From an uncultured Spirochaetia bacterium (GTDB taxonomy: Bacteria; Spirochaetota; UBA6919; CAYPZJ01): a DNA stretch of 44,255 nucleotides. The stretch lies in the NCBI GenBank assembly GCA_964414635.1, contig CAYPZJ010000001.1, forward strand, positions 1 to 44,255. The letters are read 5' to 3'. The stretch's first letter is position 1. The number at the start of each line of letters is the position of its first letter. The position numbers and the translations under genes are program-made. The notes under the pieces are model-generated. The model saw only the letters and a list, made by a program, of their open reading frames with translations. It was not told where the DNA came from and did not search any database. This document shows positions 4,887 through 28,029 of the stretch, in pieces.

Positions 4887-5765
4887 TTATCTCCTTCGGG
4901 AACGTTGTTTAAAAAAGCGTATGAGGGGTAACAAATATGGTTTATGGGTTTGAAGTTTAATGGAATCGATTTTTAATAATTGCATAACACCCAATCGTTC
5001 CTGTTCCATCTGTACAATACCTTTTTCATATGCATGTTTCATTTTCTGACTGTTGGTGTCTACCACCACGATTTCTCCGGTTTCGGGATCCACCACCTCG
5101 ATCATCCCAACTTCTGGGAGGATATGTTCCATTTGATCTTCAATGTGGATCGCTACAAAATCATGCTTATATGCTGCCATTTTTAAGGATTTTTGATAAT
5201 CCAAGGGAGAAAGAAAATCCGACACAAAAAAAACGATTGCTTTTCTTTTGAGGACACGATTTAGATATTCTAAAGCCTGGTTGATATCCGTACGAGTTCC
5301 TTGCACTTTGGGTTTAGCAATTTCGCGGATAATGCGTAGGACATGATTTCGGCTTTTTTGAGGGGGTAGAAATAACTCTATTTCATCGGTGAAAATTAAT
5401 AAAGCAACCTTGTCCTTGTTCTGAAGTGCGGAAAAAGCTAAACAGGCGGATACCTCCAACGCTAAATCTTGCTTGGTACGTCCCTGGGTCCCAAATTGTT
5501 GGGAAGCGGATGCATCGATCGCAATGACCACCGTTAGCTCGCGTTCTTCGGTATACCGTTTTACATACGCCTGGTCGGAACGTGCTGTAACATTCCAATC
5601 GATGTTTTTAATATCATCACCGGGTGTATATTCCGCTACTTCCTCAAATTCCATTCCCTGCCCACGAAATACACTGTGATAATCCCCCGCTAGCATCCCT
5701 TGGACAATTTTCTTGGTATGGATTTCAATCCTACGAATTCGCTTGAGTAAATCGGATTGTTCCAT
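4887..5765 (-). CDS. DUF58 domain protein (MoxR-associated, VWA-like)
   Basis: Carries the signature 'FRGQGMEFEEVAEYTPGDDIKNIDWNVTAR' and 'VIAIDASASQ'. Its ATG overlaps the MoxR stop codon (TAATG), which suggests translational coupling. Confidence 0.9.
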   Translation of the reverse strand: MEQSDLLKRIRRIEIHTKKIVQGMLAGDYHSVFRGQGMEFEEVAEYTPGDDIKNIDWNVTARSDQAYVKRYTEERELTVVIAIDASASQQFGTQGRTKQDLALEVSACLAFSALQNKDKVALLIFTDEIELFLPPQKSRNHVLRIIREIAKPKVQGTRTDINQALEYLNRVLKRKAIVFFVSDFLSPLDYQKSLKMAAYKHDFVAIHIEDQMEHILPEVGMIEVVDPETGEIVVVDTNSQKMKHAYEKGIVQMEQERLGVMQLLKIDSIKLQTHKPYLLPLIRFFKQRSRRR

Positions 5766-6748
5766 TAAGGTACCTCAACTGTATTGAATATCCGTTGAAT
5801 GATTTCATCCGCATCCTTATCTTCCGCTTCGGCTTCATAGCTTAATATAATCCGATGGCGCAGCACATCAGCCCCGATTACACGAATATCTTCAGGAGTG
5901 ACATATCCACGTCCTTGGAGAAATGCTCGAGCTTTCCCTGCCAAGGCTAAAAAGATGGACGCTCGAGGGGATGCCCCATACGTGATTAAATCCGGGTCAA
6001 TTTTATAATCTTGGGGATAACGGGATGCTGCAACAATATCCAAAATATAGTCCACAACCTTTTCATCAATGTATATTTGTTTTATTAAATCACGCAGCTG
6101 CAGCACTTTTTCCATACTAATAACCGGTTGGATTTCATGCAAACCTTCCTCCACCACATGTTTGACAATCACCTTTTCCTCTTCTTTTGTTGGATAAGTG
6201 ATTTTCAATTTCAACATAAACCGGTCCACTTGTGCTTCAGGAAGGGGATACGTTCCCTCTTGCTCAATGGGATTTTCCGTTGCCAATACAATGAATGGTT
6301 CTTGAAGCTGGAATGTCGTATCACCAATGGTTACCTGCCGTTCCTGCATACACTCTAACAGGGCGCTTTGTACTTTGGAAGGCGCTCGGTTGATCTCATC
6401 AGCAAGAAGAATATTGGTGAAGATGGGCCCTTTCTTTGTTGTGAAATCACCTGTTTTCTGGTTATAAATTAGGGTTCCAATTAAATCAGCAGGGAGTAGA
6501 TCCGGTGTAAACTGTATTCGTTTGGAATCTGCACTGATAGCTTTCGCCAAACTCGTTACCGTCAACGTTTTCGCAAGACCGGGAACTCCTTCGATGAGAA
6601 CATGTCCGTTAGTAAACAACGTAATCAACAACCGATCGATCATTTCCTGTTGTCCTACAATTACTTTCCCAATTTCTGTCTTTACCTTTTGGACGTGCTC
6701 CATTTCTTGATTTACTTGATCGTTCAAACGTGAAATATCAATGTCCAT
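5765..6748 (-). CDS. MoxR-family AAA+ ATPase
   Basis: Walker A 'EGVPGLAKT', Walker B 'ILLADEINRAPSKVQSALLECMQERQVT' and 'VLATENP' match the AAA_3/MoxR family. A strong SD (GAGGAGA) sits upstream of the ATG at 6748. Confidence 0.95.
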   Translation of the reverse strand: MDIDISRLNDQVNQEMEHVQKVKTEIGKVIVGQQEMIDRLLITLFTNGHVLIEGVPGLAKTLTVTSLAKAISADSKRIQFTPDLLPADLIGTLIYNQKTGDFTTKKGPIFTNILLADEINRAPSKVQSALLECMQERQVTIGDTTFQLQEPFIVLATENPIEQEGTYPLPEAQVDRFMLKLKITYPTKEEEKVIVKHVVEEGLHEIQPVISMEKVLQLRDLIKQIYIDEKVVDYILDIVAASRYPQDYKIDPDLITYGASPRASIFLALAGKARAFLQGRGYVTPEDIRVIGADVLRHRIILSYEAEAEDKDADEIIQRIFNTVEVP

Positions 6749-6823
6749 GGTTTCTCCTCATCTGGTGGTTCGGGTATTCGTCTGACTTGGGATTCCCCAT
6801 CCTGAATACCACGAACAGCATTT

Positions 6824-7762
6824 CTATAATACAAAAAGAACTGTTTTTACTTCATTTTCCAGGTGTTCCAAATCCTGAGTCGTCATCCGCTGCTTTCCAT
6901 ACTGAAGGTTGTCTAGTAACATAAAGAATTTGGTAACCCCCTCCTTGATCTGATCATCATACTGCTTCAATTTAAAAAAATCTTCCAAGCGACGTACCTG
7001 TGCTTTGCGCAAAATGAATTGGGTGATGAGCATACGAGTAATAGGAATCAAATGTTTAAGTCCCCGTCGGGTTTTGTGAACTTTTGCTTCTAGGAATTTC
7101 TGATAAATTCGTTCTGGATAATCTTCGGGTAGTTCATCCCCTTGTTCAATGATACGTTGCTTCCGGATGATGGCTAGATAATAAATAATAAGAACAATGA
7201 AAACAGCGCATAAGAGGGATCCCAGGATCATACCAATCGTAGTAATAATTTGTATGGTAAGCGGATGGGTTACTCCCAGCTGCTTAATGTGGCTGGTGGT
7301 CCGGATGGAAAGTTCGGTATTCAGCTGTCTGATATTTTCTTCCGTCACTTCTAAATTCCGAGTAACCATCACTTTCCGGAGTTTCTCTAATTTAGGAGAG
7401 AAAATAAGATCAATTCCTGGTAGCTCCATAAAGCCACTTGGTTCATCGTCGTCTACATAAATCGTATACACCAACTGGATCTGTTCAGCTGGACGATCTT
7501 GTTGGATAGCGGTGCTTGTATAAACATCAATATCCTGTAAAATGATACCCGGTTTATCGAACTCCGTGGTATAGGTAAAAAAATAGTCCTGGGTATTGAT
7601 CCAGTGGGTTGTGAAAATGATCTGCGTGGTTTCCCCACTCCAAATATATTGATCCGATATGGTTGTTTTACTATCTAAAAGGCGGGGCTCGGAAAGGATG
7701 GAATCATCCTGGGTAATCACCTGCCCACCTAATAACCATAGAATAATGAACATGTACGTCAT
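6824..7762 (-). CDS. Membrane protein with the same architecture as 3573-4880 (exported domain, TM, DUF4381-like tail)
   Basis: The track ORF starts at TTG 7813; the ATG at 7762 begins a signal-like segment (MTYMFIILWLLGG). It has a central TM (IITTIGMILGSLLCAVFIVLIIYYL) and the tail '...LLDNLQYGKQRMT', which parallels '..ETCDMVKFAKV' in the 435-aa protein. It is the first gene of the MoxR operon. Confidence 0.65.
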   Translation of the reverse strand: MTYMFIILWLLGGQVITQDDSILSEPRLLDSKTTISDQYIWSGETTQIIFTTHWINTQDYFFTYTTEFDKPGIILQDIDVYTSTAIQQDRPAEQIQLVYTIYVDDDEPSGFMELPGIDLIFSPKLEKLRKVMVTRNLEVTEENIRQLNTELSIRTTSHIKQLGVTHPLTIQIITTIGMILGSLLCAVFIVLIIYYLAIIRKQRIIEQGDELPEDYPERIYQKFLEAKVHKTRRGLKHLIPITRMLITQFILRKAQVRRLEDFFKLKQYDDQIKEGVTKFFMLLDNLQYGKQRMTTQDLEHLENEVKTVLFVL

Positions 7763-8104
7763 GAATTTTCCGCTTTCTCTTATTCCGAATAGGTTAATCA
7801 GCTCTGCCAACAAGGGTTCGAATACTACTCGTAAACGAACTCAAACCGTGTGTCAAATTGCACAAGCCAAATTTAAACGCGGCGGATGCTTCGGATTGGG
7901 GTTCGTAATCAGAACCATTTCCAAACCAACTCGCTTGTTTTAACACCGATTACCATGCTTTCCTTACAAAAAACCAATTTTCGCACTTTCTTGTATCACG
8001 ACAACTAGAAAACAAATCCCATAGTAAAAAGTAAACATTAATAAGTAGAAAAGGATGTGTATTCAAGTATATCGGTATTGTACCGATTTTATGTATGCGG
8101 AATG

Positions 8105-8177
<73 letters not shown>

Positions 8178-8217
8178 AGTTCGTAGTAAAATATACCATG
8201 ATTCACGAAAAACGTCA

Positions 8218-9081
8218 ATGCCCATAACCATCCGATCCAACGCAAAGCTAAACCTTCATCTGGAAGTAACCGGTACGCTTCCATCAGGGTATCATCTGCT
8301 AGAAACAGTATTCATACCAATTTCCTTTGAAGATACCCTTACGTTTTCCCCCCATCCCTATCCGTTCCTGTTTACTTGTTCTGCAAACCAGTTGGAAACA
8401 GACCACAATCTTATTGTACAAGCCTATAATCAATTATATCCATATTTCCGATCCCATTCCATGGGCGTAGCGATCCATTTAAACAAACGAATTCCAACCG
8501 GTGGAGGATTAGGAGGAGGTTCTAGTAATGCTGCTATGACATTAATCGGGTTAAATCAATATTATCAACTGGGATTGACCCGAGAACAATTAGCAACCTA
8601 TGCAATCCACCTCGGAGCGGATGTCCCTTTCTTTTTGTGGAATACGCCTTGTTTTGCAAAAGGAATTGGAGAACACTTAATTCCACTTTGTACTATAAAA
8701 CAACAGGTTTGGTTTTTCCTAGTATTTCCTGGGATTAAGATTGAAACACGTTGGGCGTATAAGCAGGTGGATCGCTTGTGCTATACACCTGTATTACGGG
8801 AGCAAGCTATTTTTGACGCGATACAAACCGATTGGGATTGGAATACACTGGGTACCCTATTCATCAACCGGTTTGAAGATATTGTTTTTAACCGGTATCC
8901 CCAATTGGGACAAATGCATACATGGTTGAACAACCAACCTGATGTGCTATGTGCTCGTATGACGGGATCCGGGTCTACGTTGTTTGCACTGGTATCCGAA
9001 TATGCTGCATTGGAGTCATTAGCACGAACGTTTCATACAATGTTTCCCGGAGTACGAGTAGGAAGTGCAACCCCATTATAA
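8218..9081 (+). CDS. ispE: 4-(cytidine 5'-diphospho)-2-C-methyl-D-erythritol kinase
   Basis: Has the GHMP-kinase motif 'IPTGGGLGGGSSNAA', an N-terminal 'KLNLHLEV.G....GYH.LETVF' and a C-terminal 'MTGSGSTLFAL'. Both the length and the ATG start are typical of IspE. Confidence 0.92.
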   Translation: MPITIRSNAKLNLHLEVTGTLPSGYHLLETVFIPISFEDTLTFSPHPYPFLFTCSANQLETDHNLIVQAYNQLYPYFRSHSMGVAIHLNKRIPTGGGLGGGSSNAAMTLIGLNQYYQLGLTREQLATYAIHLGADVPFFLWNTPCFAKGIGEHLIPLCTIKQQVWFFLVFPGIKIETRWAYKQVDRLCYTPVLREQAIFDAIQTDWDWNTLGTLFINRFEDIVFNRYPQLGQMHTWLNNQPDVLCARMTGSGSTLFALVSEYAALESLARTFHTMFPGVRVGSATPL

Positions 9082-9093
9082 CCATATTCTGGC

Positions 9094-11283
9094 TTACGAT
9101 TCGGAAGGGCGGGCATCGTAATCCTTTGCGTATTCCATCATGGTATCGAACTCCACACGAATTTCTTCCACCAAATTCGTTAACCAATCAATAGTATACC
9201 GAGTTGCCAATTCAAGGGCATCTTCATAAAAATTTATGATATCCGTTTTTAACTCAGACACTTCGTTTCGTGCTGATAATTTGTCTTCTTTAAACTTTGC
9301 CTGAATACGATTAAGTTCCCGTACGGCTTTTACATTAAAGGCTTCTCGTTTTGATAGTGTAACCAGCATTTTATAAAAGAACTGGGGATCGGTTTCAAAT
9401 ACCGTTTTAATCTGTTCCTGATCCAGACAGATCACCTTTGTTTCATCGGCTGCGATCAAGGTGGCAGTACGATTTTGCCCCAACAGCATCGCTGTTTCCC
9501 CAATCACAGCCCCTGTTTCGGTTTCGGAATCAATCTTTTTATGTTCTACTAATACATCAATTATTCCACTAACAAGAATATAAACATACCGAGCAGGTTC
9601 GTGTTCTTTCACAATAACATCTCCCCGTTTAAACATACGGGTGTACGGATCCAACGCTTCGCCACGTACGGTGATTCGAGTAGCTGCCTTATCAAGAATA
9701 AAGAGATTCCCTTTTTTATACGTTCGCCTCTTCTCATATTTCTTTATCAGATCCAGTAACCACGGATAACGTTTTTCATCATAATATCGCTTCACCGTAT
9801 TCAGCGATTTAGCAAAGAGCACCCGTAATGTTTTTATCACTCGTTCATAACTTCCTTGAATGGATTCCAGTTCCGCATTTTTTTTACGGTAGATCTGTTG
9901 TACTTGTGTAATTACCTGGGCAATATTTTGTGCAATGGTCCACCCGATGTGATACTGTGAAGCCATATCTATAATTCGTTTTGGACCCACCGATCGAATT
10001 TTACAGGAATCCCCTTTCACGACACGCAGATGACGTTGGATGGGTTCATCTAATTGTTGGGATAAAAGCAATTCAGCAACCCCAAACATCATATTCGTTC
10101 CACTAAATTCAAAGGATTCCCCTCCTAATTCGTATGTGATACTCCCTTCTTCTAAGATATATCCTTGTTCTGCTGGATCCAACCAATCATAAACCATCTC
10201 AATAGGTGCCCGTTTTCCCATCTCCACCGCAGCTTCTTCTTCAACATTAATAGCCACCCGATCCAGCCAATCTAATTCGTATTTATTGGCGAGGGTAGAA
10301 GACTGTTTTCCAAATCCTTCTATTTCCACTTGTATTTGAGCAATACGTTCCATCAAGGAATCTTCATCCGTTCCGTAGATTTGTAATAAACGATTCACTT
10401 CACCCACGGTGCGGATATTAAACGCTTCACGCTGAGCCAACGTGGTCAACATACGTAAAAAGAAATCTTTCCCCTCCTCAAAAATGAGTTGAATCTGAGT
10501 ATGGGGAATTTTAATGAGTTCTGCATCGGATAGGGCTTTTAACGTTGCTGTACGATTTTGCTTTAATAACATTGCTGTTTCACCAATGATCGTACCGGGT
10601 TCTTCTACTTTATCCAGGATTTTTTCCCGTACTGACACTTCGAGCTGTCCTTTATTGAGAATGAATAATTCCGTTGCCGGTTCGCCCTCTTCCATAATGA
10701 TGCTATCTGCTGGATATACTTTCAGAAAACGTTGGATCAATTCTGTATCGATAGCAAAGGTACTGGCTTTGGGTTCCCAAAGAAAAGAATTCCCCTGCCG
10801 ATAAATTGCAGATTTCGTATGTTTGGCAAGAATATCAATCAACCAGGTATAATGATTGTGATCAACAAATCGTTGTAGCAAATTAACATTTTTGGCAAAA
10901 ACTATACTCAATCCCTTAATGAGTTTTTGGTTGGTAGAAAGTTGGTGATTCTTTTCGGTGAAGATCTGCTGGCAAGACGTAATTACATGCGCCATATTTT
11001 GAGCGATCGTCCATCCAATATTAAACGATTTGGCATACTTCAATACGTGTTCTTTCGGGACTTTCCGATATTCACAGGATTCGCCTTCCAATACCTGAAG
11101 TTGCCTAGTAAAAGGACGATCATATGCACGTTCCAATAGGAGCTCACTCACCCCGAACATCATATTGCTTCCACAGAACTCAAATTGCTCTTGTTCTATA
11201 GAATAAATAAGAGTTCCCTGTTTTAAAAGATATGCTTGTTCAGAAGGATCATTGACATCATAAATTAAATCAGCATATGCCAT
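9094..11283 (-). CDS. Tandem-duplicated cyclic-nucleotide-binding protein (2 degenerate + 2 canonical CNB domains, no output domain)
   Basis: Canonical phosphate-binding cassettes 'IGETAMLLKQNRTATLKA' and 'IGETAMLLGQNRTATLIA'. The two ~365-aa halves align throughout (e.g. 'FEFCGSNMMFGVSELLL'/'FEFSGTNMMFGVAELLL' and 'IGWTIAQNMAHVIT'/'IGWTIAQNIAQVIT'). The track start at 11313 is TTG; the ATG at 11283 has AGGA 8 nt upstream. Confidence 0.85.
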   Translation of the reverse strand: MAYADLIYDVNDPSEQAYLLKQGTLIYSIEQEQFEFCGSNMMFGVSELLLERAYDRPFTRQLQVLEGESCEYRKVPKEHVLKYAKSFNIGWTIAQNMAHVITSCQQIFTEKNHQLSTNQKLIKGLSIVFAKNVNLLQRFVDHNHYTWLIDILAKHTKSAIYRQGNSFLWEPKASTFAIDTELIQRFLKVYPADSIIMEEGEPATELFILNKGQLEVSVREKILDKVEEPGTIIGETAMLLKQNRTATLKALSDAELIKIPHTQIQLIFEEGKDFFLRMLTTLAQREAFNIRTVGEVNRLLQIYGTDEDSLMERIAQIQVEIEGFGKQSSTLANKYELDWLDRVAINVEEEAAVEMGKRAPIEMVYDWLDPAEQGYILEEGSITYELGGESFEFSGTNMMFGVAELLLSQQLDEPIQRHLRVVKGDSCKIRSVGPKRIIDMASQYHIGWTIAQNIAQVITQVQQIYRKKNAELESIQGSYERVIKTLRVLFAKSLNTVKRYYDEKRYPWLLDLIKKYEKRRTYKKGNLFILDKAATRITVRGEALDPYTRMFKRGDVIVKEHEPARYVYILVSGIIDVLVEHKKIDSETETGAVIGETAMLLGQNRTATLIAADETKVICLDQEQIKTVFETDPQFFYKMLVTLSKREAFNVKAVRELNRIQAKFKEDKLSARNEVSELKTDIINFYEDALELATRYTIDWLTNLVEEIRVEFDTMMEYAKDYDARPSES

Positions 11284-18893: not shown

Positions 18894-20726
18894 TTAAGGC
18901 AGGCTATTTGCTTTGCGCGGAGTTGCTCGTGTGTTGAGTTCATAGCCGGGAGCGATATATTGGGGATCGGTGGTAGTGCAGCGGTGCCAACTTGCAGGAT
19001 CCGTACCATCGCCTGGATTGGTTGGATTCCGTTCCATCGAATAGGAGATGCCACCCTCATAGCCACCTTTTGTAAGGGGGATATTCGTACCATTCCATGC
19101 TTCATCCACAATTTGTCCCAACGAGTTCTTTAACGTAATATGAGCATCAAACGGATTCACGGGTATAGATACATCATCCTCATCATCATCTTCTTCAATA
19201 GGAGGAGGGGACAGTTTGATATAATCGAGGTTGTTTGTATAACCATTCAGAAAAAAGTCATTTTCTGGGAACGCATTTGCCAGAATAGCATCATTCTCTC
19301 CAATATGAGGCTCTGTGATCAAAAAATATCCATTGGGTGGGATTATCGTACCTTCAACAAATCCAATATGATTCCATTTGGGATGATTGGGATATCCTGT
19401 AATACCATCGATGACCCAGTAGGCTAAATCAATTTCCTGATCGGTCATATTTCGAAGTTCGATAAACTCATTTTCCCCAAACGGTCCTGGGTAGTGGGAA
19501 CCATCTGCATGGGTAATGGGTCCCAATCCATCATCCGAAACAGGTCCTGCCCAGAATACTTCATTAATGATAACTTCGCCTGGTTGCGATTTGGTGCCCG
19601 GAAAATCATCCCCATTTTTCCATTGGTGATTCCAATTCTCAACAAATAAATCAGCTGCCCTTTGGCTATGGATAATCGTTAAGACCTCGTCGTTATTAAA
19701 ATTTGCATTATTGGACCAATTAAACGACCCTGTTAATACCTTCGCATGATCGGTACCCGCATCCACAATCATAGTCTTATTATGCAAGCGTCCACCACCA
19801 CCTTGCCAGTCCCCATATACATACGTGTTTTCATTTCCATCCATACGAATTTGCAGGTTTCCATTGGTTTCCTGAAGTGCACTAATTAACCGAAATACTT
19901 CTACATGCATACTGTGCGTTAACTGGGATCGATCCAGCACCCCACGTACTTGTACGCCTCGTTTGGCTGCTTGAATCATCAGCTCACCCATTTCCGATTT
20001 TGTAAACGCAAAAATCATAAAGTATACATTATCCGTAGCCTCTTGAAGCGCTTTGTAAAACTTAGTAATCGGTGCTTCATGAGGTGAAAAATATACTTCC
20101 ACACGGGTATCGCCTACTTGAAAAACATTCAGGTTATCCGTAAGGGTTTTTGAATGCCCGAATTTCCCATTAAACATCTGTTCGAACTCCCGGGTGAAAT
20201 CCGCCGCTACATCCCGATCATAAATAATCATAGCATTGTTATCATTGTGTTCCATTCCACTGGTTGTAATGTTAGATGTGCCTGTAAATACCACCCGATT
20301 ATCTGCAATCAAAAATTTATTATGCATAATACTTGGATTATTCCCACTTACACTGGGGATATCATTTTCTACCAACGCTAGGTATCCAGCATGACGAGAT
20401 TGTTTATAGGTAATGGAACCCACATGCCGGCATCGAACTCCTCGTTTGTGTGCGCTAATAATCGCATCAATAATCGCAGGATGATAGAACCCGTAAAAGG
20501 CAAAATCTAACGTCTTTTGTGCATTATTAATGATTTTAATTAATCCATCATCCATTAACGAATCGGTACCGTTATATTGTGTGGTATTGGGACTGTTGAA
20601 ATAATACTCGATATATTCAGGTTCAGTATTCATTTCACCAATAGGATTCCAAGTACAGGATGAAAACCCCAAACCGAGTAGTTGAATCACCAGGATAATC
20701 AGAATAAAAATGCGGTATTTAGCCAT
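18894..20726 (-). CDS. Exported phospholipase-D-superfamily enzyme (two intact HKD motifs) fused to a C-terminal lamin tail domain (LTD)
   Basis: Lipobox 'LGLGFSSC'. HKD1 is 'HNKFLIADNRVVFTGTSNIT' (His codon ~20322-20324). HKD2 is 'HNKTMIVDAGTDHAKVLTGSFNWSNNA' (His codon ~19782-19784). The LTD covers ~18900-19590 ('VIINEVFWAG...NEFIELRN...DLAYWVI'). The ATG at 20726 has GGAGA 6 nt upstream. Confidence 0.85.
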   Translation of the reverse strand: MAKYRIFILIILVIQLLGLGFSSCTWNPIGEMNTEPEYIEYYFNSPNTTQYNGTDSLMDDGLIKIINNAQKTLDFAFYGFYHPAIIDAIISAHKRGVRCRHVGSITYKQSRHAGYLALVENDIPSVSGNNPSIMHNKFLIADNRVVFTGTSNITTSGMEHNDNNAMIIYDRDVAADFTREFEQMFNGKFGHSKTLTDNLNVFQVGDTRVEVYFSPHEAPITKFYKALQEATDNVYFMIFAFTKSEMGELMIQAAKRGVQVRGVLDRSQLTHSMHVEVFRLISALQETNGNLQIRMDGNENTYVYGDWQGGGGRLHNKTMIVDAGTDHAKVLTGSFNWSNNANFNNDEVLTIIHSQRAADLFVENWNHQWKNGDDFPGTKSQPGEVIINEVFWAGPVSDDGLGPITHADGSHYPGPFGENEFIELRNMTDQEIDLAYWVIDGITGYPNHPKWNHIGFVEGTIIPPNGYFLITEPHIGENDAILANAFPENDFFLNGYTNNLDYIKLSPPPIEEDDDEDDVSIPVNPFDAHITLKNSLGQIVDEAWNGTNIPLTKGGYEGGISYSMERNPTNPGDGTDPASWHRCTTTDPQYIAPGYELNTRATPRKANSLP

Positions 20727-20773: not shown

Positions 20774-21982
20774 TCAGGGAATGGGATTTGTAGTTGGCGA
20801 ACCCCAAATTCCATCGAATACAATAAATTTAAAAAAATCGGAAAAATATTTCGTATGATTCGTTCCATTGGGATGTAACCTTCGAATAATTATCAGAGTA
20901 CTATCCCCAAAATCCACCCAATTATCAAATTGAGCATCGTGATATACTTCAGTAAACCCATTCGAATATATACAAATAGTTTCACGATCCAAGGCTTCAT
21001 CAATGATAAGTACGTTGCCCCCGATCCGAGAAGCAGGATCATCATATATTTGCACCGAACCCAGAAACTCATCTCGAAATCGTGCACCAAGGGTTGCATC
21101 AAGTCCATCTGCATTCACAATCCCCATAACTGTAAATGGGTATACCGGATCCGTTTGCCCTGTGGGGATGTAAGAAAATGTCCGCTTATAATGCAACGCA
21201 TCATACAATGCAGCGTCACTAAACGAAGAAGCAAGAAAATGAACCGATTGTTCTGCCCGATACACTTCTTTAATAAGCTCAGACATGGGGAATTCCTGGG
21301 GTCCAAAATAAAGGGTCACTTCAAAATCATGCGTCTGATACGTGTAGTAGGTATTTCCTGCTTTTAAGGGTGCGCTATCGTACGGTGCCCAGGCTTCACC
21401 AAATACGCCATGAACCAGTTGATTAAACTCCTGATCAAAATCTTCAGCGATTTTTTCGGAATAGATATCTAATCCAAAAGTATGCGTCGTATTAAAATCC
21501 CACCATGTCACCGGAGACCCAGCGATCCAGGTATACATTTCATCAATAATACAAAAATTATGAGACATATCACTCGTATACGTTCCTCGTGTCTTACCAT
21601 CCCCAAATGTACAAGGGATTCCCGCACTTAACAATTGTACCGAACTATAGTCACCTGAATAATCAATATCTGAAACGTATTCAACCTGTACACCACGGTT
21701 CTGTGCTTGAATCATAGCATCCGCAATAGCCGGAAAATCAAACCTGGAAAAGGCACATTTGACCGTGCGTTCAGACTGGTTGATATGTTCTATTAATTTT
21801 TCATCCATGAGGTTAGGATAGGAACCAGGCATCGCAAAATATCCTTCTAAAAAGGCAAGGTAATGGTCAGGTGTACTTTGAAAATTGTTGTTCCAGGAAC
21901 ATGCACTAGCAAGGATACTACTGCATAATAGCATGATTCCAATCCGTAAGATTTTATATCGCTCGTTCTTAGGCATAATCAT
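20774..21982 (-). CDS. PLD-like lipoprotein with both HKD motifs degenerate (predicted pseudoenzyme)
   Basis: Lipobox 'ILASAC'. It is collinear with the PLD part of 18894-20726 (e.g. 'FPAIADAMIQAQNRGVQV' vs 'HPAIIDAIISAHKRGVRC' and 'IAEDFDQEFNQLVHGVFG' vs 'VAADFTREFEQMFNGKFG'). Motif 1 reads 'HNFCIIDEMYTWIAGSPVT', so Lys and Asn are lost. Motif 2 reads 'GGNVLIIDEAL', so His and Lys are lost. Confidence 0.8.
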   Translation of the reverse strand: MIMPKNERYKILRIGIMLLCSSILASACSWNNNFQSTPDHYLAFLEGYFAMPGSYPNLMDEKLIEHINQSERTVKCAFSRFDFPAIADAMIQAQNRGVQVEYVSDIDYSGDYSSVQLLSAGIPCTFGDGKTRGTYTSDMSHNFCIIDEMYTWIAGSPVTWWDFNTTHTFGLDIYSEKIAEDFDQEFNQLVHGVFGEAWAPYDSAPLKAGNTYYTYQTHDFEVTLYFGPQEFPMSELIKEVYRAEQSVHFLASSFSDAALYDALHYKRTFSYIPTGQTDPVYPFTVMGIVNADGLDATLGARFRDEFLGSVQIYDDPASRIGGNVLIIDEALDRETICIYSNGFTEVYHDAQFDNWVDFGDSTLIIIRRLHPNGTNHTKYFSDFFKFIVFDGIWGSPTTNPIP

Positions 21983-22019
21983 ATCATCCTATTGTTTTCT
22001 GAAGTTATTCCCAAAAAAA

Positions 22020-22706
22020 TTAATATTGCGATTGACACGGTTCACCCGGGGAAGCAAAGGTACGGGTACGATATCCCTCAGCAACATGCACGCCGGTATG
22101 GGAAGCACTATAGGTATACCAGCTGGATACACTCACGCCATCGCTGGTGAAATAATCCTGATCCCGTTCCATGGATCGAGCCGTATACCCATCGGTAGAA
22201 CCACCCATCGGAAGTTGATCACTGATTCCTACTGGTTCCCCTAGCTGTTTATAAGCACTCCAAATGGTTATTCTAAAATATCGATCCGGAATTGTAAGAT
22301 GGGGTAAGGCTACATGGAGAACATCTGTAAGGGGGAAAGCATGATTCGTATTATTGGCAACAATGAAAAAGGCATCGGGATAGAGGATAAAATCCGGGTT
22401 TTGAGGGATAACAACCGTTTTGCGGACAACTCCTTCGAAAGTAAAATACCAGCCAGACATATTTACTGGTATTTCTGTTTGATTTTGGATTTCAATGAAG
22501 TCATCATCGGGATAATAGGTTCCTGCATCATCGTAAGAACCTGCCCACATCACTTCGGAGATAATAATCCCTCCCCGATCAGCAAATCCCCCTAAATTAT
22601 TTTCATAGAAGGAGGTGTATGGATCTTCATCCCAAGTGCATCCTATCATTGCCCAAATTACCAATCCGAGCACGCCAATGAGGATTTGTATTGTTTGTTT
22701 TCCCAT
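22020..22706 (-). CDS. Stand-alone lamin-tail-domain (LTD) lipoprotein
   Basis: GGAAGGGGG SD and lipobox 'AMIGC'. 'IIISEVMWAGSYDD...DDFIEIQNQTEIPVNMSGWYF' aligns with the LTD of 18894-20726. Confidence 0.8.
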   Translation of the reverse strand: MGKQTIQILIGVLGLVIWAMIGCTWDEDPYTSFYENNLGGFADRGGIIISEVMWAGSYDDAGTYYPDDDFIEIQNQTEIPVNMSGWYFTFEGVVRKTVVIPQNPDFILYPDAFFIVANNTNHAFPLTDVLHVALPHLTIPDRYFRITIWSAYKQLGEPVGISDQLPMGGSTDGYTARSMERDQDYFTSDGVSVSSWYTYSASHTGVHVAEGYRTRTFASPGEPCQSQY

Positions 22707-24525: not shown

Positions 24526-25743
24526 CTATCTTTTAGCATAGGCATAACTTGCAGGTGATACCTGGTAACTAATATTATCTGGATCTACATCTCCAGGTAT
24601 ATCGGGGTCCGGTTCTAAAACAAAGGCTGCATACGTATAGGCGATCCCTGCGACAGCTAACGTATCGGTATGCGCCGCACCAGTACCCTGATAAATACGC
24701 ATTCCATCAGCAGGACTTGTAGGAATCCTTTCAGTAGATTCGTTGCGCATAATCACAATGTTTAACCCCGTTGGATTACTCCAGGAAAGGCTAATACCAC
24801 TTGCATCGCTCGTTGCAGTAAAAGATGGAATTTTTGGAAATACGGGTTTTATAATTTGGAGTTGATCTGCAGAATAATAAATAAATCCAATATCGCTGTA
24901 GCTAATATACCCAGGACCAGTAAAAATTACCTGGGTACCCAACTCCATTGGTAATTGGATGCGCCCGGTATCATAATCCAATAATAACTTCCAGGAGGTC
25001 CCATCCACTTCTCGAATGGTATTCAAAGCAAACGTATCATCGGATGAAGCTACTGCGGTGACAAATCCTGTGATACGAAATACTTTGTTTATGAAAATCG
25101 TCAGATCCTTAGAAGTATCCCAAAATGGTTTTGCAAGTTCGGTTGCTAAATCCGAAACCATTTGATCTGTCATAACTTGGTATGACACAGGATTTAAGGT
25201 GCCATTGGGGGTAATCCGTCCGTGATTGGTTACTATTTCCCATTCCAAGACGATAGGGACATCATAACTTTTACGAGCTAGTGTCACATGCATATCAATG
25301 CGATCACCCGGCCATACATTCGCATCAATCATATTTTTAGTTAATACCATTAGACCAGCCTGGGAATCCTGCATCCAGAAGCATCCATAGTGGCGAATAT
25401 CTCCCCATGCGTCCATGGGTGCGCTATCATACATATATTTATAATAATAGGTTGGATAGGAAGTGACGGTTCCGCTAATCATAATATCCACAGGAGTTTC
25501 AAAATAGCTGTTGAAGCTGTTGATTAAAGTGCGAATATTTCCATCTTCCGTATAGGGTTGATTGGTAAAAACCACATCCAAACCAACAGAGGAAGCAGGG
25601 GGATTCGGTACAATAGAATCACCATTCGGAACGGTACATCCTATACAACAGACGATTATCCCAAGTAAGATTATCATATAAATTCCTGAGAACACGTTTT
25701 TGAACGGGGTTGTTGGGGTAATGGGTTTTAATACGGGTTGCAT
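24526..25743 (-). CDS. Surface lipoprotein with C-terminal FN3-like domain
   Basis: GAGGAAA SD and lipobox 'CCIGC'. The ~250-aa N-terminal domain is unrecognised. The C-terminal 'ISLSWSNPTGLNIVIMRNES...PADGMRIYQGTG...YTYAAFV' has the same FN3 flavour as one module of the giant protein. Confidence 0.7.
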   Translation of the reverse strand: MQPVLKPITPTTPFKNVFSGIYMIILLGIIVCCIGCTVPNGDSIVPNPPASSVGLDVVFTNQPYTEDGNIRTLINSFNSYFETPVDIMISGTVTSYPTYYYKYMYDSAPMDAWGDIRHYGCFWMQDSQAGLMVLTKNMIDANVWPGDRIDMHVTLARKSYDVPIVLEWEIVTNHGRITPNGTLNPVSYQVMTDQMVSDLATELAKPFWDTSKDLTIFINKVFRITGFVTAVASSDDTFALNTIREVDGTSWKLLLDYDTGRIQLPMELGTQVIFTGPGYISYSDIGFIYYSADQLQIIKPVFPKIPSFTATSDASGISLSWSNPTGLNIVIMRNESTERIPTSPADGMRIYQGTGAAHTDTLAVAGIAYTYAAFVLEPDPDIPGDVDPDNISYQVSPASYAYAKR

Positions 25744-26167: not shown

Positions 26168-27661
26168 TCAAAAATCAGTGATTTTTGATACCCATTCTGG
26201 GTGATCAACAAATGGATTCCGATTCCCTTGTAGTTCAAATATGGTATCATTTCGAGTACGCTCTTCATCCGATACGGGAAATGTTGTATGCCATGTTTTA
26301 AGTGTGGTTTCCATTTGGTTTGTGATGTGGTATGTATCATATCCCCAATTTTGGGTATCAAAATTGACATTACCATGATACCGCGTACTAATATAGAAAT
26401 GCGCTCGAGCTACGACTCCTTTATGCTCATCACGAGGTTCAAACACAGTACCCGGATAATCGCCGGTACCTTTTTTACTTCCACCATTTTCCCATGTGAT
26501 GCCACCGGTTACAACTCCAAATGGATTGGTGAACCGTTGGAGGTTCGCATCTGACCATGCAGGAAATAAATGATGTAAATCAGTTTTCGCAGTTTCCCAT
26601 TCATCATAGGAGGATTGAGGCCAAGTATGCTCGCAATTATAATCCGTACTAAGAATTTGCCCGGTATATACACATTCAATGGTTCCAGGACTTCCTTCTG
26701 CAAATATGGTTTGATACATATGCTGTCGAACCGTTGTGTAATCCATAACCACATGATCATCAATTAATGCTTGTAATTCCAGGATAAACGCTTCATCGGA
26801 TAAACTGGTATTCACATCCTGATAATAAGCAATAACCGGGTCAACCCATGTTCCCGTTGTAAAACCAAGCGTATGAATATACGGTTCGGAAAGTGGTTCA
26901 TGAAGAGAAGTGGTAACTGCAGCAAGTACCTTTATTTTATACGTTGTATTATCCTGCAAACGATTTGTAGGGGTAAGAATAAATTCTTTATTCAAATTTT
27001 GAGCTTGAGGCGGAGCTGAAAAGGTGACACAGCTACTAAAATTATCAGAAGAAAGCTGCACATTCCCTGTACAGGCTGTATCCATGGTATTTACAGTCAT
27101 GGTGGAGATATTCATCTCCCGATTAAATGTGAGTTTGATTTTTAAATCGGGAAACACATCTGTTTCTCCATCGGAAGGATCTGTGGCAATAACTGTAGGA
27201 GACCCTCCAGATCCCCCTATGGTAGTAAACCCGGTTGGGGTAATATAATCCTCACTCAATCGAATCCCTTTGACACTCACCACTCCCGTTGTAACTTTTA
27301 TCTGATAGGTGATTCCAGCTTGAAGGGATACTTTGGGTTGAAGAGAGTAATGATAATCATCAAATACTTGTGGTTGTTGAGTCATGGGAACGCAGGTAGT
27401 AAATCCATCTGCAGATACTTGGATGGTTCCTGTGCATTCATAGGTGTCAATGTTGGTTGTCATCGTTGTAGGGTCAACAATATGACTAAGCGACACAATA
27501 ATCTCCGTATCCAGCGCAACGTCGGTAGCACCATCGGTTGGAGAAAGATAGCCTACATAGAATGGATTCGGTTCATCCTGACAACGAAGGGTCAATCCCA
27601 TGCTAATCAGTAATAGGATTAGTCCTGAAGCTATATATTTTCCACTCATCATTTTAAACAT
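26168..27661 (-). CDS. Exported endonuclease I-family nuclease with two N-terminal SbsA-type Ig-like domains
   Basis: The C-terminal ~230 aa carry endonuclease I motifs: 'NCEHTWPQS', 'DLHHLFPAWSDANLQRFTNPFG', 'FEPRDEHKGVVARAHFYISTRY' and 'GNRNPFVDHPEW'. AAGGAG lies 9 nt upstream of the ATG at 27661; the track start at 27679 has no SD. A hydrophobic signal peptide is present. Confidence 0.88.
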   Translation of the reverse strand: MFKMMSGKYIASGLILLLISMGLTLRCQDEPNPFYVGYLSPTDGATDVALDTEIIVSLSHIVDPTTMTTNIDTYECTGTIQVSADGFTTCVPMTQQPQVFDDYHYSLQPKVSLQAGITYQIKVTTGVVSVKGIRLSEDYITPTGFTTIGGSGGSPTVIATDPSDGETDVFPDLKIKLTFNREMNISTMTVNTMDTACTGNVQLSSDNFSSCVTFSAPPQAQNLNKEFILTPTNRLQDNTTYKIKVLAAVTTSLHEPLSEPYIHTLGFTTGTWVDPVIAYYQDVNTSLSDEAFILELQALIDDHVVMDYTTVRQHMYQTIFAEGSPGTIECVYTGQILSTDYNCEHTWPQSSYDEWETAKTDLHHLFPAWSDANLQRFTNPFGVVTGGITWENGGSKKGTGDYPGTVFEPRDEHKGVVARAHFYISTRYHGNVNFDTQNWGYDTYHITNQMETTLKTWHTTFPVSDEERTRNDTIFELQGNRNPFVDHPEWVSKITDF

Positions 27662-28029
27662 AAACCTGTACTCCTTCATGTAGTACTAGAAAAATTTGTG
27701 CCGGATACTTCTACCGTTGCTTTTAGACCAAAAAACTTCAAAGATCATGGAAAATATACGCAGTCTAACAAGTATCCTAAGGATAACACAAAGAAGTTAA
27801 GATTTGATAAAAATTTGTTTGTTAATAATCATAGTACACAGCACCTGCAAGTTGAATCTTGGGGGCTTGAGCCCACCATTAGGAATATAAGGGTGTGTTG
27901 TTAATTTTTGAGTGCTCACACTTGCTTATATACCTTGACCCGTACCCATACAATTCAACGATTCAAAAAAACCTGGACAGCCTGTTCAATAGGTGAAAGA
28001 ACAGCATCCTGCATTCCGTTTTTTTTATG

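Follow-up and report, generated by a model that had tools for sequence, protein, structure and literature searches.

In the 44,255-nt contig CAYPZJ010000001.1 of an uncultured Spirochaetia bacterium (this whole stretch is called the window below), two adjacent genes at positions 20,774 to 22,706 encode predicted lipoproteins of 402 and 228 amino acids (aa). They lie next to a gene for a 615-aa protein in which a phospholipase D (PLD) part is fused to a lamin-tail domain (LTD). We propose that the 402-aa and 228-aa proteins correspond to the halves of a PLD-LTD paralog that is ancient and catalytically dead, and that these three lipoproteins act at the outer membrane together with an AlgE-like β-barrel encoded beside them, a reading that we regard as probable but far from assured. 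The observed pattern is real and lies well above chance. It would be of a known kind, a pseudoenzyme partnering its active paralog, and as judged from the sequences it corresponds to an ancient module and not to a local split of the neighbouring gene.

The initial annotation had aligned the 402-aa protein end to end with the PLD half of the 615-aa protein. This was borne out by profile-profile comparison and by the structure model, but not by BLASTP, which aligned residues 26–263 with residues 27–255 of the enzyme (28% identity, E 4e-26), nor by a hidden Markov model (HMM) built from 120 PLD-LTD relatives, whose match to the 402-aa protein ended at residue 255 and left residues 256–402 uncovered. 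Pfam recognised PLDc_2 at residues 63–189 only (E 1.9e-10). At the profile-profile level, hhalign matched columns 8–400 of the family of the 402-aa protein with columns 17–396 of the PLD-LTD family over 338 columns (probability 99.95%, E 1.2e-38). An AlphaFold2 model, computed from an input alignment of 16 sequences, contained two complete lobes (mean pLDDT, a predicted local-distance-difference score, 81; predicted TM-score, pTM, 0.79). Foldseek searches with this model returned PLD3 and PLD4 as best matches in the Protein Data Bank (PDB; E 5e-19), together with the bacterial PLD 7e0m and vaccinia F13, the set spanning E 5e-19 to 1e-15 and TM-scores of 0.60–0.70. With both of its lobes complete, the 402-aa protein has the bilobed PLD fold and belongs to the PLD superfamily. 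Its score against SACK1 (PF07894), 13.8 bits, lay below the cut-off of 21.4.

The 228-aa protein, hereafter the small LTD protein, had been assigned to the LTD half of the same neighbour, and all comparisons agreed with this. BLASTP aligned its residues 45–220 with residues 388–608 of the 615-aa protein (24% identity, E 7e-8), positions 399–602 of the fused-family HMM matched it with E 6e-22, and the hhalign match between the small-LTD family and the fused-family columns 406–610 extended through the C-terminus (probability 99.8%, E 5.3e-29). The Pfam LTD model (PF00932) was passed only marginally, with 34.7 bits for a cut-off of 34.3. When the window genome was searched with the small-LTD HMM, the best non-self match was the LTD of the enzyme (50 bits over the full domain), and the two other LTD proteins of this genome scored 30 and 19 bits. 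In loci with the main gene order (described below), orthologs of the 228-aa gene lie directly upstream of the gene for the dead PLD. On this evidence the 228-aa protein is the predicted counterpart of the enzyme's LTD half, and the two proteins tile the fused neighbour as had been suggested. No protein in which a small LTD is fused to a dead PLD was found among the top 150 representatives. At one locus (L035, G029:C53:7000-17361), the small LTD gene (8603-9250) lies directly upstream of an active two-HKD PLD (9268-10362), whose open reading frame (ORF) is truncated where the contig ends, without a dead PLD gene between the two; the small LTD is therefore not exclusively tied to the dead paralog.

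The loss of catalytic residues was then read from ungapped alignments. In BLASTP, in the family HMM and in hhalign alike, Asp147 of the 402-aa protein falls opposite Asp147 of the 615-aa protein, and His140-Asn141-Lys142 of the enzyme face Ser140-His141-Asn142. The initial annotation had read motif 1 as having lost its Lys and Asn. Both losses were found, but that reading was one residue out of register: because the Asp147 register places His141 at the x position of the HxK motif, the canonical His is lost too. Further along, the GTSN of the enzyme is aligned with AGSP, so that Asn is replaced by Pro. Motif 2 had been read in the proper register, GGNVLIID facing HNKTMIVD, with His replaced by Gly321, Lys by Asn323, and Asp328 retained; the GSxN position of lobe 2 is also devoid of Asn. 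In these alignments both catalytic His and both Lys are absent from the 402-aa protein, which is not predicted to possess a catalytically competent HKD site.

These losses are a property of a whole protein family. Among 66 aligned HKD-less members, position 140 (lobe 1 His) is occupied by Thr in 31 and Ser in 24, and by His in none; position 142 (lobe 1 Lys) is Asn in 42 and never Lys; position 323 (lobe 2 Lys) is Thr in 45 and Asn in nine, and again never Lys. No conserved His was found at or beside the motif of lobe 2 in these 66 members. By contrast with the catalytic residues, the Asp of either motif is retained in the family; Asp328 is kept in 59 of the 66 and Asp360, which hhalign aligned with the Asp of the invariant NDE motif of the PLD-LTD family, in 63 of 63. 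The picture drawn by these alignments is that of a dead family, in which residues that would hold the fold survive and those that would do the chemistry are gone. A merely shifted set of catalytic residues was not seen, since Lys is missing from both positions throughout and the displaced His141 occupies the x position. The earlier view that hydrolysis is very unlikely is thus reinforced by the absence of the canonical catalytic residues from all 66 aligned sequences.

The family itself emerged only from an exhaustive search of 1.84 billion representatives, which gave 825 matches to the 402-aa protein; a word-indexed homolog search returned the query and three remote PLDs. A single full-length ortholog, P0125, was recovered (40% identity, E 3.6e-84), followed by many proteins of about 400 aa. 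The HxK(x)4D motif is absent from 68 of the top 148 representatives, as it is from the 402-aa protein, and the HKD-less PLD lipoproteins form at least 66 clusters at 50% identity. Where source records name these proteins, it is only as 'hypothetical protein'. The aligned members share motifs of their own (M-[TS]-H-N-F-xxx-D, FGPQE, ALxYK, Asp328 and F-x-D360); Pro228 and Lys266 are each found in 65 of 66 members, Pro228-Gln229-Glu230 is nearly invariant, and Asp105, Pro228, Lys266 and Asp328 count as invariant residues of the family. In one HKD-less member, P0156 (783 aa), the second lobe is interrupted by an insertion of some 380 aa; it is composed of Asp-rich DxDxDG-type repeats, which look like thrombospondin type 3 calcium-binding repeats.

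A maximum-likelihood tree of 86 PLD modules placed 25 of 26 HKD-less proteins in one clade (support 100) and the PLD-LTD enzymes in another (99). The two were joined with an SH-aLRT support of 96, to the exclusion of 35 other two-HKD PLDs, which places the HKD-less family as the sister clade of the PLD-LTD enzymes. The 402-aa protein scored 102 bits against remote HKD-less members and 82 bits against its 615-aa neighbour. The initial annotation had described the pair as a split copy of the fused neighbour. The paralogy holds, as judged from the tiling and from the joint clade, but the idea of a local copy does not: because the 402-aa protein scores higher with its own family than with its neighbour, and the same gene order recurs across lineages, the duplication and the split are ancient.

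This recurrence was examined in loci taken from metagenome contigs and contigs of metagenome-assembled genomes (MAGs), with ORFs sorted by four HMMs. The locus search used a narrower alignment (A2), which biased it to the main subgroup of the family and away from the divergent branch of the window. The order barrel, small LTD, dead PLD, active PLD-LTD was kept wherever the contig reached, in 14 non-redundant loci besides the window (L013, L014, L016, L017, L018, L020–L027 and L038); one of these, L023, lacks the adjacent PLD-LTD gene. Host MAGs are labelled Proteobacteria, Bradymonadia, Myxococcales, Myxococcota or Deltaproteobacteria; the host genomes measure 4.5–12 Mb and carry one dead PLD each. 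Many junctions within the cassette overlap at their stop and start codons, by 1–4 nt (e.g. L016, L022 and L027), a feature typical of subunits that are translated together. L013, the closest locus (a 3.5-kb contig from a JGI metagenome), shares this gene order, and its proteins are 54% (small LTD), 39% (dead PLD) and 64% (enzyme) identical to those of the window. Among 301 genomes of the window's own phylum, a strong match was obtained in the window genome only; on closer inspection a full cassette was recognised in G191 and a permuted one in G015, so that this phylum does have the cassette, if only sparsely. In G015 (L036, C81:30000-42000) the order is PLD-LTD (5246-7180), barrel (7229-8752), degenerate PLD (8776-9774) and small LTD (9799-10491), the degenerate PLD being a 333-aa protein without HKD that scores 51 bits with the dead-PLD HMM. 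Here the dead PLD comes before the LTD gene, as would be expected of a gene that had just been split. Taken together, the comparisons indicate that the gene set is an old, conserved and unnamed cassette, whose genes have travelled together since the ancient duplication and split.

Selection on the cassette was examined through identities and substitution rates. No internal stop was found in any cassette gene at any locus. Mean pairwise identity was 48.5% for the PLD-LTD enzyme, 45% for the small LTD, 38% for both the barrel and the upstream lipoprotein, and 36% for the dead PLD. Between the window and L013 synonymous sites were saturated (proportion of synonymous differences, pS, 0.75–0.80), hence only the nonsynonymous rate (dN) is given: 0.25 for the enzyme, 0.39 for the small LTD and 0.60 for the dead PLD. 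The only unsaturated pair, L018 and L020, gave ratios of nonsynonymous to synonymous rates (dN/dS, NG86) of 0.37 for the enzyme, 0.48 for the barrel, 0.52 for the small LTD and 0.60 for the dead PLD, in high-GC genomes where dS is probably underestimated. Constraint on the dead PLD is weaker than that on the enzyme, comparable with that on the barrel, and clearly not neutral. Intact frames of 400 codons at 30–40% identity in more than 12 lineages exclude a pseudogene, and the dead PLD is a pseudoenzyme retained by selection. The earlier statement that both ORFs are intact and keep their lipoboxes agrees with the frames, which are intact at every locus examined, and with the candidate lipobox Cys, present in all three proteins of the window and in 60 of the 66 HKD-less family members. 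With these frames and the ratio of 0.60 in the one unsaturated pair, the genes are retained and not decaying.

The 615-aa protein has the features expected of an active enzyme. Pfam recognised PLDc_2 twice in it, and also an LTD and the PLDc active-site motif; both HKD motifs are intact. The PLD-LTD family to which it belongs counts more than 414 members. The NCBIfam NucT equivalog models scored 42–76 bits, far under their cut-offs of 211–351, and the closest solved sequences to its lobes are Zucchini/MitoPLD, Nuc (1byr) and NucT (6ehi); from its sequence it is probably a phosphodiesterase or nuclease. Within its LTD half, an acidic run PPIEEDDDEDDVSIP (window 19140-19200, minus strand, residues ~513–523) falls where the alignment with the L013 protein, its closest ortholog, has an 18-residue gap, and is therefore a lineage-specific insertion.

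The barrel gene is the first of the four closely packed minus-strand ORFs, which run from 24395 to 18894 in the order 556, 228, 402 and 615 aa, with gaps of 18, 37 and 32 nt (Table 1). Its product has a signal peptide and a sub-threshold match to Pfam Alginate_exp (PF13372; 19.8 bits, E 3.9e-4, cut-off 25.2). In Foldseek, the top matches of its AlphaFold2 model (pLDDT 72.5) were all AlgE (E 6e-15, TMt 0.60–0.65, root-mean-square deviation ~8 Å), and homologs were found upstream of the small LTD at other loci (E 1e-59 to 1e-74). Further upstream, the 405-aa lipoprotein is probably a fifth, weakly conserved member of the cassette, as suggested by phmmer matches directly upstream of the barrel at eight loci (E 5.5e-13 to 2.3e-4). 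No counterpart of the Endonuclease I gene was found near the cassette at any other locus examined, and this adjacency is specific to the window genome. The Pfam content of the cassette flanks at the other loci showed no consistent functional theme, and no glycosyltransferase or polymer-synthesis gene was conserved around the cassette.

Table 1. Features of the cassette and its upstream neighbours in the window.
Feature	Coordinates	Strand	Evidence
Active-looking PLD-PLD-LTD predicted lipoprotein, 615 aa	18894-20741	minus	ORF; Pfam; two intact HxK(x)4D...GSxN motifs
HKD-less PLD-fold predicted lipoprotein, 402 aa	20774-21982	minus	ORF; PLDc_2 E 1.9e-10; hhalign; AlphaFold2/Foldseek
Degenerate motif 2, GGNVLIID, residues 321-328 of the 402-aa protein	20999-21022	minus	translation; hhalign register
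Degenerate motif 1, MSHNFCIID, residues 139-147 of the 402-aa protein	21542-21568	minus	translation; alignment register
Small LTD predicted lipoprotein, 228 aa	22020-22706	minus	ORF; Pfam LTD; family HMM; hhalign
AlgE-like outer-membrane beta-barrel, 556 aa	22725-24395	minus	sub-threshold Alginate_exp; AlphaFold2/Foldseek; homologs at other loci
405-aa lipoprotein, no Pfam match	24526-25743	minus	phmmer matches just upstream of barrel at 8 loci
Big_5-Big_5-Endonuclease I protein	26168-27679	minus	upstream of cassette

Translation of the 402-aa gene probably begins at its third codon, the ATG at 21976, which gives a protein of 400 aa; AGGA lies 8 nt 5' of this ATG, and a public protein collection also lists 400 aa. 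The hydrophobic N-termini of the three lipoproteins terminate in LASAC (402-aa), AMIGC (228-aa) and GFSSC (615-aa), which are candidate lipoboxes. In the window they are followed by a shared pattern, Cys-[Ser/Thr]-Trp-[Asn/Asp] (CTWN, CSWN and CTWD), that is missing from the L013 orthologs (CSKN and CAYQ instead); it may serve as a signal for sorting or processing in this lineage, or be due to chance. A scan for promoters and terminators gave fewer matches than in shuffled sequences and was uninformative. The window genome contains a single cassette and no PLD elsewhere. Mis-binning of the contig or a recent transfer was considered and ruled out, the composition being typical of the genome: the tetranucleotide distance of the contig (C1) is 0.0042 for a genome median of 0.0072, that of the cassette is 0.0120 for a 95th percentile of 0.0149, and the GC content of 41.3% is genome-typical.

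How such a set of proteins might work can be outlined as follows. At the outer membrane, the three lipoproteins and the AlgE-like barrel would act jointly on a phosphodiester polymer, for which extracellular nucleic acid is the likeliest candidate; the dead PLD and the small LTD would form a non-catalytic module. A nucleic-acid substrate is favoured because the enzyme is nearest to Zucchini, Nuc and NucT, an LTD is found in the nuclease ExeM, and the barrel is nearest to AlgE, which handles an anionic polymer. The small LTD and the dead PLD could together re-form the outline of a PLD-LTD protomer that associates with the active enzyme, an ancestral homodimer having turned into a heterodimer with one dead partner; the homodimeric structure of PLD3 (PDB 8s86) offers a precedent for this. 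Alternatively, the two proteins might bind the substrate and present it to the enzyme or to the channel. A more specific version, which we put forward tentatively as a possibility and no more than that, is an as yet undescribed outer-membrane machine made of the upstream lipoprotein, the AlgE-like barrel, the small LTD, the HKD-less PLD and the PLD-LTD enzyme, which would capture and process an anionic phosphodiester polymer, be it extracellular nucleic acid or some other. The split pseudoenzyme made of small LTD and dead PLD would then serve as a substrate receptor, as SusD-like proteins do for glycans: it would mimic the shape of the enzyme, hold the polymer uncut and pass it to the active paralog and to a polyanion channel.

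Several observations weigh against the proposal of an ancient dead paralog acting with the enzyme and the barrel. The dead PLD is the fastest-evolving gene of the cassette, with 36% mean identity compared with 48.5% for the enzyme, and its constraint is modest. One genome, G305 (L023, dead PLD 5942-7165), contains the barrel, the small LTD and the dead PLD with no adjacent PLD-LTD gene; a PLD-LTD-like frame of 660 aa is found on another of its contigs (G305:C15:950-1642). Since the Endonuclease I gene is not conserved beside the cassette, its presence in the window adds little. The substrate of the enzyme could be a phospholipid or another phosphodiester polymer. Finally, 53 of the 66 members conserve His141, which lies one residue past the canonical His. 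This last point, together with the conservation of Lys266 and Asp360 and the near-invariant Pro228-Gln229-Glu230, would suit an HKD-less PLD that is still an enzyme with a non-canonical site, built for example from His141 with Glu230, Lys266 and Asp360. We consider this distinctly unlikely. PLD chemistry requires two His and two Lys contributed by both lobes, whereas lobe 2 has no conserved His and Lys is never found at either Lys position; active enzymes often carry His, Asn or Asp at the x position (HHK, HNK and HDK), which is consistent with a structural part for this residue; in P0125, the closest ortholog, His141 is replaced by Tyr; and Asp360, shared with the NDE motif of the enzyme family, is hence structural. 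We therefore read His141 as a probably structural, not a catalytic, residue.

The adjacency and the paralogy of the pair with the 615-aa gene, and a dN against L013 that is the highest of the three for the dead PLD, are what would be expected if the pair had arisen by recent local duplication and fission of the 615-aa gene and were heading for decay. This history appears extremely improbable, given that the 402-aa protein is closer to remote members of the HKD-less family than to its neighbour, that this family is monophyletic with motifs of its own (FGPQE, ALxYK and Asp360), and that the arrangement with intact ORFs recurs at 14 or more other loci of different lineages, whose identities of 30–45% exclude a single recently transferred element. 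A reading that we hold to be unlikely is that the dead PLD, alone or with the small LTD, inhibits or chaperones the PLD-LTD enzyme and keeps it silent in the periplasm before it arrives where it acts, in the manner of nuclease-inhibitor or effector-immunity pairs. It is in line with the strict co-occurrence and translational coupling with the enzyme, with the predicted export of all these proteins as lipoproteins, and with the general existence of paralog-derived enzyme regulators. No finding supports it specifically, an inhibitor would not obviously need an LTD partner of its own and a barrel, and in G305 the dead PLD stands apart from any PLD-LTD gene; the immunity proteins of PLD-type effectors are not known to be PLD-like. 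Slightly less doubtful, though still improbable, is a dead PLD that serves as the binding subunit for a substrate other than nucleic acid, in the export or remodelling of an anionic phosphodiester polymer or in phospholipid turnover. AlgE, the nearest fold of the barrel, exports an anionic polysaccharide, the PLD superfamily includes lipid hydrolases and synthases, and Endonuclease I is not a conserved neighbour. Against this stand the nuclease branch as the closest relative, by sequence, of the enzyme lobes, their sub-threshold matches to NCBIfam NucT models, the LTD fusions that are typical of extracellular nucleases such as ExeM, and the lack of conserved polymer-synthesis or glycosyltransferase genes around the cassette. 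We thus retain the non-catalytic module acting beside an active paralog as the preferred explanation.

Comparison with known systems gives this explanation a frame. PLD3 and PLD4, lysosomal 5' exonucleases (8v07, 9vbg and 8s86), are the best structural matches of the 402-aa protein (TM-score 0.60–0.65) and two-lobed single chains like it; they differ in being active and eukaryotic, with both HKD motifs, and in sharing only 10–13% identity. In vaccinia F13 the HKD set is degenerate in part, and the role of the protein at the membrane is mainly non-enzymatic. F13 also shares the two-lobed PLD fold (9fhk and 9fhs; E 3e-16, TMt 0.70), but it is viral, palmitoylated and located at the cytosolic face, keeps one motif, and has no LTD partner or barrel. 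Nuc of plasmid pKM101 (1byr), NucT of Helicobacter pylori (6ehi) and Zucchini/MitoPLD have the same lobe fold and are the nearest solved sequences to both the 615-aa protein and the dead family; they are active homodimers with a single HKD, whereas the 402-aa protein consists of two fused lobes without any. The FAM83 DUF1669 domain is a vertebrate PLD pseudoenzyme that serves as an anchor or scaffold for casein kinase 1 (CK1) (PMC6008594). The dead-family profile matches FAM83B (5lzk) with E 4.4e-6, and DUF1669/SACK1, like the dead PLD, is a PLD-fold domain without PLD catalysis, kept in the case of FAM83 as a protein-binding scaffold. FAM83 proteins are eukaryotic, cytosolic and single-lobed, anchor CK1 and are not paired with an active PLD paralog, whereas the 402-aa protein is bacterial, exported, two-lobed and encoded beside its active paralog, which makes it an analogue and not a member. 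A role of the dead PLD as a binding or scaffolding non-catalytic partner is plausible.

For the LTD and the cassette as a whole, the closest comparisons come from nucleic-acid degradation. ExeM of Shewanella oneidensis is an LTD-containing extracellular nuclease, and deletion of its LTD lowers activity in vitro (PMC6085458), so that this domain is an accessory to nucleic-acid degradation. As in the 615-aa protein, its LTD is attached to an exported nuclease, export and nuclease activity being predicted in the 615-aa case; ExeM differs by its EEP and YhcR-like catalytic domains, which are not PLD, by having its LTD only in fused form, and by the absence of a dead paralog. The ddbABCDEF locus of Bacteroides thetaiotaomicron and other Bacteroidales, reported in 2025, unites nucleases with an outer-membrane transporter and with accessory proteins in the utilisation of DNA (PMC12478041). 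It would be a functional analogue of the role proposed for the cassette, but it uses another outer-membrane transporter and not an AlgE-like barrel, and no pseudoenzyme was described; lamin-tail domains and phospholipase D are unmentioned in the main text of that paper (PMC12478041). We found no description of the HKD-less bacterial family or of the cassette in the literature, whose coverage was limited, so that this absence is not proof.

Pseudoenzymes that partner active paralogs are well documented in eukaryotes, with fewer bacterial cases, especially among exported proteins. Here a dead copy is split in two genes that are retained beside the enzyme and an AlgE-like channel in many uncultured Myxococcota-type lineages and in at least one other phylum. 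If the cassette is indeed a DNA-harvesting device, it would be a second way of building an outer-membrane system for nucleic-acid utilisation, next to the ddb loci of Bacteroidales, and the dead PLD would be a clean test case for a phosphodiesterase fold turned into a binding module. If the substrate is another one, the cassette still defines five co-inherited families that may be annotated together.

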